Assembly (NCBI RefSeq): GCF_003334785.1
Contig: NZ_QOWV01000003.1
Strand: one strand, 5' to 3'
DNA from: Escherichia coli
Lineage (GTDB): Bacteria > Pseudomonadota > Gammaproteobacteria > Enterobacterales > Enterobacteriaceae
DNA: 64,000 nt
This document shows, piece after piece, positions 31,785 to 33,185 of this stretch. The position numbers and the translations under genes were made by a program. Numbering within the stretch: the stretch's first letter is position 1; every line of letters starts with the position of its first letter. The notes under the pieces were generated by a model. That model saw only the letters and a program-made list of their open reading frames with translations. It was not told where the DNA came from and did no database searches.

Positions 31785-31886
31785 GCCTGATGCGCTTCGC
31801 TTATCAGGCCTACATAAGGCATTGCAACTGATTGAATGCTTGAGAATTTGTAGGCCGGATAAGGCGTTTACGCCGCATCCGGCATG
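31785..31886. repeat. REP / BIME palindromic units
   Basis: gcctgatgcgcttcgcttatcaggcc and tgtaggccggataaggcgtttacgccgcatccggca between convergent yjeI and yjeJ. Confidence 0.6.
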
Positions 31887-31952
31887 ACCAACGATCACGT
31901 TATCAGTCATTTCAGGCTGGATGGCTCCAGCCTCGCATTAGCAAAGATGAGA

Positions 31953-32822
31953 TTATTTCGCCTGTGGTGCAGTTTTGCTGGTGGATTGAACACGTAAGTG
32001 ATGCAGCGCGCGTAAGCATTGATCCTGGGTTAGCGGTTGGGCGTTATTCGCCGCTACGGTGCGAACATAGACCTGACATGGCACACCCGCGAGTTTTTTC
32101 AGTCGTGGGCTGAAATCAAGCATTCGGCGAGTGATCGCTTCTATTTCTTTACCCGGCGTTGCTTCACGCGTTTTCACCACTGCGCCGCTAAATTGTTCTT
32201 TGCCACTTTCATCTTTAAAGCGGTAAAGCACCGCCAGATAATGGTCGAACAAGTTATGTTTCCATTCCGGTTGGGAATAGGTGTCATATTCCAGATTGCC
32301 ATTGTCCTGGCAGTCAACGTCGTATAACGGCAGGAAATCTAACAGTGAGGTAATACGTAATGCCAGTTCACGCATTTCCGCATTATTAATTGCATGAATG
32401 ATTGCTCGCGCCAGCATTTCAATCTGCAACTCATTGACGACTAACTCACATTTGCTACCGTCATGTAGCGTTAATACGAAGGTAAGATTTTCGCCTTGAT
32501 TATCGGTAAGTTCCAGCGTGTTAACCCGACGATTAATATCGGCATTTTTAAGCTCATCAACCAGAATTTCTGGGATGTTTTCTGCCATTTTCTTAATGAC
32601 TTTATCGCGAGCTTGCTCATACTGAAGGTGTGCAGCAGCATCCAGTTTATGCTTTTGATGCAGACGACTTTCCAGCGCAATCAGCAGGTCGCGCAGTTCC
32701 ATGACAGACATAAAGAACAACGATTCTTTATTGCGAGGTTCTTTAATTTTCAGCGCCAGTGCAATGAAATTATTACTCTTGCGAATAACACCGGTATTAA
32801 CACCCTTGATGCTTATGGCCAT
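31953..32822 (-). CDS. yjeJ: soluble protein of unknown function
   Basis: 289-aa ORF MAISIKGVNTGVIRKSNNFIALALKIKEPRNKESLFF...; no recognisable motif; AT-rich upstream region. Confidence 0.8.
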   Translation of the reverse strand: MAISIKGVNTGVIRKSNNFIALALKIKEPRNKESLFFMSVMELRDLLIALESRLHQKHKLDAAAHLQYEQARDKVIKKMAENIPEILVDELKNADINRRVNTLELTDNQGENLTFVLTLHDGSKCELVVNELQIEMLARAIIHAINNAEMRELALRITSLLDFLPLYDVDCQDNGNLEYDTYSQPEWKHNLFDHYLAVLYRFKDESGKEQFSGAVVKTREATPGKEIEAITRRMLDFSPRLKKLAGVPCQVYVRTVAANNAQPLTQDQCLRALHHLRVQSTSKTAPQAK

Positions 32823-33083
32823 GTAGGTTCTCCCTAACCATTTCTCAATTAAATAATTAATTTTAATTTATAAGCCAGATAAATGGGCTTGGTAGTAATA
32901 GTTGTTAAAATAACATAAATAGCCGTACTCACTCTATATAAACAGAAAAGAAAGGTTAATTATTGGTGTTAGCTATATAAAAAGTAACAACAGCAATGCA
33001 TATGAATAATTAAAGGTTATGCAACGGGCAAAGATTAAACTTCCCAGTTTAATGACAGGTTGCTGTACTTGCGTTTGTTGCTC

Positions 33084-33185
33084 TTGCCGGATGCAGCGTA
33101 AACGCCTTATCCGGCCTACAGTTCATTGCAAATCCATTCAATTTCAATGCACGATGTAGGCCTGATAAGCGTAGCGAATCAGGCA
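33084..33185. repeat. REP / BIME palindromic units
   Basis: tgccggatgcagcgtaaacgccttatccggcctaca and gtaggcctgataagcgtagcgaatcaggc between yjeJ upstream region and epmB 3' end. Confidence 0.6.

Follow-up and report, generated by a model that had tools for sequence, protein, structure and literature searches.

Class II microcin clusters, such as that of microcin V (MccV; cvaC-cvi-cvaA-cvaB), combine a precursor peptide carrying a double-glycine (GG) leader with a membrane-fusion protein (MFP), an ATP-binding cassette (ABC) exporter with a C39 peptidase domain and a 'fourth gene'. The immunity proteins of class IIa (pediocin-like) peptides and of lactococcin A are cytosolic and act on the mannose phosphotransferase system (Man-PTS) from the cytoplasmic side; they are four-helix bundles of about 100 amino acids (aa) from Firmicutes. 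Validated class II microcin immunity proteins are small (up to 216 aa), reside in the cytoplasmic membrane and are encoded immediately adjacent to the microcin (PMC12219008). In the MccAB1 system of Acinetobacter baumannii, the soluble cupin McaB was earlier reported as the immunity protein; true immunity is conferred by a hidden 56-aa open reading frame (ORF) with two transmembrane (TM) segments, and McaB is required for antibacterial activity (PMC13188072). The Caulobacter Cdz system comprises the type I exporter CdzAB, the glycine-zipper proteins CdzC and CdzD and the immunity protein CdzI, and mediates contact-dependent killing (PMC5380434). Here we analysed yjeJ, which in Escherichia coli K-12 is a y-gene with no function, informative domain or phenotype, within a 64-kb stretch of the E. 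coli contig NZ_QOWV01000003.1 (hereafter the window). We show that in most other Enterobacterales the YjeJ family is the fourth gene of a conserved operon-like cassette. This context provides the first testable functional lead for yjeJ, and connects a gene conserved throughout E. coli with a secretion cassette that is of microcin type and linked to fimbriae.

The relatives of YjeJ are encoded with a GG-leader precursor, an MFP and a C39-ABC exporter as in class II microcin clusters, and YjeJ takes the place of the fourth gene. Unlike the validated microcin immunity proteins, it is about 285 aa long and soluble, its gene lies 3′ of that for the exporter and its sequence does not vary in step with the peptide allele. 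Pediocin-like immunity offers a precedent for a soluble cytoplasmic protector against a membrane-active GG-leader peptide, although it is related to YjeJ in neither sequence nor fold and the parallel is one of analogy only. McaB is also a soluble protein encoded in a cluster with a microcin, an MFP and a peptidase-containing ABC transporter (PCAT), but it is a cupin, whereas YjeJ is predicted to be built of β4–α repeats; and no conserved counterpart of the hidden two-TM immunity ORF of the MccAB1 locus was found in the YjeJ cassettes. Cdz has type I-exported glycine-zipper peptides with secretion signals that associate with the cell surface, and a dedicated protection gene. CdzI, however, is a small inner-membrane protein, and Cdz has no fimbrial linkage and no YjeJ homologue. 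The fimbria-linked cassette may function along lines similar to Cdz.

The cassette runs from fimbrial genes through 1–3 genes for GG-leader glycine-zipper peptides, a HlyD-type MFP and a C39-peptidase ABC exporter to YjeJ. Every distant chromosomal family member for which the context was fetched is linked to it, in Raoultella, Klebsiella pneumoniae (two strains), Budvicia, Entomohabitans, Kosakonia, Klebsiella grimontii and three further contigs. These distant members came from a search of cluster representatives; a contig scan with the single protein gave close relatives only. According to tables of called genes, YjeJ starts 13–30 bp 3′ of the ABC gene on the same strand, and a chaperone–usher fimbrial operon lies directly 5′ of the peptide genes. 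The neighbourhood in the window is that of E. coli in general (groES-groEL-yjeI / yjeJ-epmB / efp), with yjeI and epmB as the direct neighbours of yjeJ. In K. pneumoniae (L014), K. grimontii, Entomohabitans and one further contig (L022), yjeI follows YjeJ, with groEL next where the contig reaches, so these cassettes occupy the same slot as the E. coli gene. Where E. coli has the leader region of yjeJ, such relatives carry an 8–12-kb block of fimbria, peptide and exporter genes between epmB and the yjeJ homologue. One locus (L025) reads epmB, a winged helix-turn-helix (wHTH) regulator, fimbriae, peptide, MFP, ABC, YjeJ-B, LuxR, YjeJ-A and yjeI; its tandem paralogues YjeJ-B (276 aa) and YjeJ-A (287 aa) are 29% and 40% identical to the E. 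coli protein, respectively. Fimbria-linked cassettes occur not only in the epmB–yjeI slot but also next to OprD (Raoultella), BON-LysM (Budvicia) and LysM-M23/ubiD (Kosakonia).

An independent sample was obtained by scanning metagenome contigs with the peptide alignment rather than with YjeJ, which yielded 59 loci that were annotated with hidden Markov models. Complete peptide–MFP–ABC cassettes with at least 900 nt of downstream sequence were present at 36 of these loci, and in 32 of the 36 YjeJ lay directly 3′ of the ABC gene. The other four (L078, L084, L086 and L088) form a divergent exporter subgroup that lacks YjeJ, shows no obvious immunity candidate in its place and would offer a natural control in work on the function of YjeJ. 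The slot was recovered as well: yjeI directly follows YjeJ in 21 of 23 metagenomic loci, and epmB lies upstream in 23. An adhesin-like fimbrial gene lies no more than 1.5 kb upstream at each of the 51 loci for which the upstream sequence was long enough, and 50 of these also have an usher upstream. This strict synteny of fimbriae, peptide and exporter suggests an undescribed coupling between an adhesion organelle and glycine-zipper peptides, perhaps contact-dependent or biofilm-related. No conserved non-exporter gene other than YjeJ was found in the cassette. Among same-strand ORFs of at least 30 aa between the adhesin and MFP genes at 48 loci, no hidden TM immunity gene was conserved; small ORFs that appeared 'conserved' in this stretch are by-products of the adhesin and peptide genes, read antisense or in an alternate frame.

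Each peptide precursor starts with a 15-residue double-glycine leader (M[KR]EL[ST]xxEMxx[IV][SA]G[GA]), followed by a mature portion of about 105 residues that is rich in glycine zippers; an alignment of 11 precursors shows that both the leader and the glycine-zipper core are conserved. Judged by sequence, they resemble class II microcins in their GG leader, their size (up to about 10 kDa) and the adjacent MFP and C39-ABC genes. The latter two were identified by Pfam and by NCBIfam, with NCBIfam scores below the curated cut-offs, whereas the peptides match no NCBIfam model. Their matches in plasmid records were limited to two Klebsiella entries, one of which is a 5.4-Mb chromosome filed as a plasmid. 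The peptide gene can be hypervariable while the rest of the cassette is stable (L040, L055, L058, L063, L065 and L087), and at several loci it is present as two or three paralogues or in truncated copies (L014, L023, L033, L034 and L038). Cassette genes are low in GC (MFP 37–47%, ABC 41–48% and YjeJ 38–48%, versus 47–56% for the flanks), which matches the composition of E. coli yjeJ. With tblastn, no remnant of the cassette peptide, MFP or ABC gene was detected near yjeJ or elsewhere in the 64-kb window, and a deletion scar of the cassette at E. coli yjeJ could not be shown.

The protein itself matches Pfam PF15922 (YjeJ-like; E = 7.3e-175; residues 1–283 against positions 1–283 of the 283-position model), an entry that is named after YjeJ and carries no function; the RefSeq label of the E. 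coli gene is 'YjeJ family protein'. The 289-aa ORF and the AT-rich region upstream of it, both named in the original prediction, are present in the window (Table 1), and the description of the protein as lacking a signal peptide, a TM segment and a recognizable motif also held: the N terminus is a confidently modelled β-strand, the highest Kyte–Doolittle mean over 19 residues is 1.23 and the self-named PF15922 is the sole family match. NCBIfam and PADLOC gave no match to YjeJ, and the single PHROG match was not significant. Sequence searches of the Protein Data Bank (PDB) returned nothing below E = 0.27 with the single YjeJ sequence and zero matches with a 25-row profile, and Foldseek comparison of the YjeJ model with the PDB gave none at E = 0.001 or better. 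The AlphaFold (AF2) model, from a 25-sequence alignment, has a predicted local distance difference test (pLDDT) score of 93.4 and a predicted template modelling (pTM) score of 0.88. It is predicted to comprise antiparallel sheet-plus-helix modules in series; whatever the function, this architecture over its whole 289 aa has no solved counterpart. Alignment of the structural modules by hhalign revealed no significant internal repeat (best probability 3.4%).

The family is small: it accounts for 97 of 1.84 billion representatives of clusters formed at 50% identity, and many of these 97 are fragments. All plausibly named members are from Enterobacterales. Salmonella homologues are annotated as an 'inner membrane protein', which we reject because the E. 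coli protein has no TM segment; models of the Salmonella proteins can be superposed on its soluble model. Truncated Salmonella proteins of 263, 239, 186, 181, 148, 131 and 115 aa are present in the AlphaFold Database (AFDB) and may reflect decay in some serovars. A component of a defence system was also considered and rejected, as PADLOC gave no match and the E. coli neighbourhood contains no defence genes.

Members that are at least 40% identical to E. coli YjeJ and for which the context was fetched are solo genes in the epmB–yjeI slot, in Escherichia spp., Citrobacter, Salmonella, Atlantibacter and Enterobacter ENT03. In a neighbour-joining tree, the solo proteins (Escherichia, Citrobacter, Salmonella, Atlantibacter and some Enterobacter) form one clade with about 70% bootstrap support, nested among cassette-linked and plasmid lineages. 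Cassette-linked YjeJ proteins are acidic (isoelectric point (pI) 5.0–6.1), and those of the solo clade are neutral to basic (6.7–9.2). We conclude that E. coli YjeJ belongs to a derived solo clade that has shifted to a neutral or basic pI, remained under purifying selection and probably lost the cassette. Among seven cassettes, YjeJ is the fastest-evolving gene, with a mean identity of 32% compared with 75% for ABC, 66% for MFP and 46% for the mature peptide. In Serratia, a homologue that is about 24% identical occurs alone on plasmids of 18–57 kb, mostly of Rep3 type (L009, L010 and L028), near genes for ParA, an SprT-like protein, antirestriction ArdR, DUF2726 and HEPN proteins and, on one plasmid, H-NS, Hha and a topoisomerase.

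In E. coli, yjeJ is matched in all 5,426 complete genomes and is covered over at least 80% of its length in 5,397 of them. Disruptions are few; among the rows listed they are IS1 insertions (E. coli genomes H1, H50 and H53). One O111:H11 strain has an element of the IS621 family (IS110-like) annotated within the matched yjeI–yjeJ–epmB stretch. The ratio of nonsynonymous to synonymous substitution rates (dN/dS), taken against four other Escherichia lineages, is 0.04–0.05 except for the least diverged lineage, at 0.115, and is comparable to that of epmB in every case; between genera, the dN of yjeJ is 4–5 times that of epmB. In an upstream alignment, the Shine–Dalgarno sequence is conserved in Escherichia albertii, Citrobacter, Salmonella and Atlantibacter, and the promoter region is conserved in E. 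albertii. Genomic systematic evolution of ligands by exponential enrichment (SELEX) with RpoD placed a constitutive promoter, TTAACC-17-TAGAGT, upstream of yjeJ; the same table flags H-NS at other spacers and not at the yjeJ–epmB spacer (PMC3946193). We located these hexamers in the window (Table 1), where they match 8 of 12 consensus positions; our consensus promoter scan did not list this published promoter. YjeJ protein has been quantified in cultures grown in LB (PMC9508795), yjeJ is listed as Nac-regulated (bioRxiv 10.1101/2020.03.30.016519) and SELEX with RpoH gave a peak inside the gene. A yjeJ::bla deletion has served as a linked marker, or 'linker control', in E. coli (PMC10679819). 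Taken together, yjeJ is a functional, expressed and non-essential core gene, not a variable islet.

As an explanation of these data, we tentatively favour the possibility that YjeJ is a cytoplasmic factor for generic self-protection and, where it stands alone, an orphan immunity-like factor. The family would act in the cytoplasm and protect against the peptide family of the cassette in a manner that is not allele-specific. By analogy with the cytosolic pediocin-type immunity proteins, it might work on a membrane target from inside; alternatively, the target could be the conserved glycine-zipper core of the peptides. The E. coli copy would then be an orphan immunity-like gene that shields a non-producer from the peptides of Klebsiella-type neighbours. 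Immunity-like function is favoured by elimination, because YjeJ is the only conserved non-exporter gene, and because it evolves fast, has tandem paralogues and orphan plasmid copies, and is fixed in non-producers. A more far-reaching version is rather doubtful: that the family constitutes a new class of cytoplasmic protectors with PUR-like repeats, directed against a large family of fimbria-linked, PCAT-exported glycine-zipper peptides whose cluster fills the epmB–yjeI slot in Klebsiella and its relatives, and that an orphan copy, fixed in the core genome of the non-producers E. coli, Salmonella and Citrobacter, gives them inter-genus resistance. Allele-specific immunity is unlikely, because YjeJ proteins that are 99–100% identical accompany mature peptides that are only 43–59% identical, and because YjeJ divergence across the seven cassettes tracks that of MFP and ABC (rho 0.74) and not that of the peptide (rho −0.2).

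These two patterns, like several other points, count against an immunity role, at least a classical, allele-specific one. YjeJ shows no co-variation with a cognate toxin allele; with 289 aa, a globular model and no TM segment, it does not resemble the small TM immunity proteins of microcins; its gene follows the exporter instead of standing beside the peptide gene; and although homologues are encoded in a microcin-type cluster (the 32 of 36 cassettes above), the E. coli gene is not. The four cassettes that lack YjeJ and show no substitute indicate that the peptides may need no immunity, and MccAB1 is a case in which a soluble protein of the cluster turned out to serve activity. An AF2 model of Klebsiella YjeJ fused to the precursor through a (GGGGS)6 linker, built with 22 paired rows, gave no confident complex, although its scores (pTM 0.62; peptide pLDDT 50–75, leader mostly below 50) do not make it a decisive negative. 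The antibacterial role of the peptides is putative, and the invariable fimbrial linkage could point to a surface or biofilm role instead. No strong phenotype is to be expected in monoculture, given that the deletion was used as a linker control. A generic protector that acts through the glycine-zipper core or a membrane target would reconcile most of these points.

The chief competitor, which we consider unlikely, makes YjeJ an accessory of export, maturation or activity that works in the cytoplasm with the C39-ABC exporter or with the pre-peptides. It could be a holdase that handles glycine-zipper precursors prone to aggregation, or an activity factor like the cupin McaB for MccAB1; the solo copy of E. 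coli would be a neofunctionalized paralogue. The tight position against the ABC gene suggests coupled expression, the correlation with MFP/ABC and the pairing of identical YjeJ with many peptide alleles suit such a partner, McaB sets a precedent and a new function of the solo clade would be in keeping with its shift from acidic to basic pI. An accessory should nevertheless vanish with its system, whereas purifying selection maintains the solo gene, which is fixed, in genera without the cassette at the locus, no MFP, ABC or peptide remnant was detected in the window and YjeJ travels alone on Serratia plasmids. It also evolves far faster than the exporter on which it would dock (32% versus 75% identity), the AF2 fusion showed no confident contact with the precursor and four cassettes do without it. 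A third, improbable scenario is nucleic-acid binding, for which the evidence is indirect: the pI is basic in the solo clade and acidic in cassette-linked members. Here the β-sheet faces of YjeJ would contact single-stranded DNA or RNA in the manner of PUR/Whirly proteins, and the protein would regulate, at the transcriptional or post-transcriptional level, the fimbria/peptide locus where a cassette is present and other targets in E. coli. Set against the PUR/Whirly fold (Pur-alpha 3k44 and 5fgp, StWhy2 and MRP1/2), YjeJ shows only 11% identity, no Pfam PurA match and Foldseek E values of at least 0.03.

Two further explanations concern the E. coli gene alone. That it is a functionless relic of a deleted cassette, drifting towards a pseudogene, would agree with the absence of the cassette from E. 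coli, the use of the deletion as a linked marker, the many truncated Salmonella copies in the AFDB and IS1 within yjeJ in a few strains; against this stand the coverage of at least 80% of the gene in 5,397 of the 5,426 genomes, the low dN/dS that resembles that of epmB in most Escherichia comparisons, the conserved Shine–Dalgarno sequence and promoter region and the detection of the protein, so that we find a relic scarcely credible. The original prediction had instead proposed an islet bounded by repetitive extragenic palindromic (REP) clusters, typical of a gene that is horizontally acquired or silenced by H-NS. Its compositional part stands: yjeJ has 45.2% GC (GC3 45%) rather than the 49–55% of groES, groEL, yjeI, epmB and efp, its leader is poorer still (31%), inverted REP clusters flank it and its relatives sit in a low-GC cassette at several sites. 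The islet part does not: the gene is universal in E. coli rather than variable and keeps the same epmB–yjeI slot across several genera; its dN/dS is comparable to that of epmB; the flanks are inverted repeats of REP type and not an integrase, a tRNA or direct repeats; REPs are missing or one-sided in Salmonella, Atlantibacter, Enterobacter and E. albertii, all of which have yjeJ; and the constitutive RpoD promoter carries no H-NS flag and the protein is detected, in place of the little or no expression of a silenced gene. Recent acquisition and REP boundaries are largely refuted, H-NS silencing is doubtful and the islet as a whole is very improbable. An ancient foreign origin is plausible, because relatives reside in a low-GC cassette at several sites and on Serratia plasmids.

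If YjeJ protects against the peptides or is required for them, it would be a new, non-membrane component of class II microcin biology; this would explain why searches for immunity genes that are small, TM-encoding and adjacent would overlook it, and would bear on competition between Klebsiella and E. coli in the gut. The gene and its Pfam family were already known, and the cassette context of the yjeJ homologues is the new finding; a literature search returned no paper joining 'yjeJ' with 'microcin' and none naming 'PF15922'. The cinful survey reported class II microcin matches in nearly all or most genomes of the K. pneumoniae complex, Pluralibacter and Kosakonia (PMC9746304). These taxa overlap those with YjeJ homologues, which are cassette-linked in K. 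pneumoniae and Kosakonia and are recorded as present, as homologues, in Klebsiella quasipneumoniae, Klebsiella variicola and Pluralibacter. From this overlap we infer that the cassette is the locus behind the cinful matches in K. pneumoniae-complex genomes, and that its peptides have probably been seen before whereas the fourth gene has not.

Table 1. Positions of yjeJ and associated features in the window
Feature	Position	Strand	Description
yjeJ coding sequence	31953–32822	minus	ATG start; 289 aa; PF15922 family; predicted soluble cytoplasmic
yjeJ 5′ region	32823–33080	minus	AT-rich, 30.6% GC
Shine–Dalgarno sequence of yjeJ	about 32830–32834	minus	GGGAG, directly 5′ of the ATG
Candidate sigma-70 promoter	32931–32959	minus	−35 TTAACC (32954–32959), 17-nt spacer, −10 TAGAGT (32931–32936)
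Left bacterial interspersed mosaic element (BIME)	31778–31892	no strand	Pair of REP units where yjeI and yjeJ converge at their 3′ ends
Right BIME	33077–33191	no strand	Inverted copy of the left BIME, just 3′ of the epmB stop
epmB ORF	begins 33217	plus	

The REP clusters on both sides of yjeJ are where they had been described. Their inverted-repeat arms pair 31778–31837 with 33132–33191 (60 nt, 83%) and 31849–31892 with 33077–33120 (44 nt, 93%), and an end-to-end alignment of the left cluster with the reverse complement of the right (about 130 nt) has 88% mean column identity. The REP core CTTATCMGGCCTAC (at most one mismatch) occurs 6 times in the window, where 0.01 occurrences are expected; four of these lie on the flanks of yjeJ, at 31800(+), 31850(−), 33106(+) and 33156(−). 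Both clusters are REP/BIME elements in that they are imperfect palindromes with a conserved core, extragenic and paired in opposite orientation; Rfam matches to the REP-derived naRNA4 at both were sub-threshold only (about 40 bits versus a gathering threshold of 59.5). As in other E. coli BIMEs, REP-unit pairs stand at the usual site, 3′ of gene ends, and the sole oddity is that a single gene is enclosed by two BIMEs that are inverted relative to each other and separated by 1.2 kb. The left BIME is found in Escherichia spp. and is absent from Salmonella, Atlantibacter and Enterobacter, in which yjeJ has no flanking REPs; E. albertii lacks the cluster on the epmB side and keeps the other, and Citrobacter has one REP core beside yjeJ. 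Within E. coli, the REP–yjeJ–REP segment is covered over at least 80% in only 4,775 of 5,426 genomes, and thus the REP clusters vary while the gene does not: about 12% of genomes lack part of the segment and retain yjeJ. As yjeJ occurs without REPs or with one-sided REPs in relatives, the REPs are later colonists of pre-existing spacers, and the BIMEs and the AT-rich leader are secondary features of two intergenic regions, not island borders.

In an amoxicillin-evolution study, the ampC amplicon began five times, in independent lines, within the yjeJ/epmB spacer and once within the yjeI/yjeJ spacer (PMC12625342). REP-mediated duplication join-points are a plausible cause of these boundaries; the study never uses the word REP, though both spacers contain the BIMEs. 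A low-GC leader (29–39%) is common to Escherichia, Citrobacter, Salmonella and Atlantibacter and is not present in Enterobacter ENT03, and in relatives the GC of yjeJ is 2–9 points below that of its own locus.

Some public records call for caution. Genes identical or nearly identical to E. coli yjeJ occur in assemblies labelled Bacillus coahuilensis (100%) and Bacteroidales (a metagenome-assembled genome, 99%) (L001 and L007), and the AFDB holds a 600-aa epmB–yjeJ 'fusion' labelled Trichuris trichiura that is 99% identical (A0A077ZBR0) and a distant family member labelled Thelohanellus kitauei that is 27% identical (A0A0C2JF96); all four look like contamination. Several PLSDB 'plasmid' records with YjeJ matches are chromosomes or chromosome fragments. 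One of them, K. pneumoniae strain 176 (L026; CP125156.1, filed as a 'plasmid' of 5.37 Mb), has what appear to be two tandem cassettes between epmB and yjeI, in the order wHTH regulator, a gap without listed genes, ABC, YjeJ, fimbriae and a gene for a 120-aa peptide at the end of the stretch. The PLSDB tables omit pseudogenes, which bears on this gap, and the first cassette seems to be partly decayed. Within the window, a terminator scan gave nothing above chance. Weak, sub-threshold Rfam matches at 31283–31324 (ctRNA_p42d, E = 0.08; Rev39 5′ untranslated region (5′UTR)), just 3′ of groEL, probably mark the groEL terminator hairpin.

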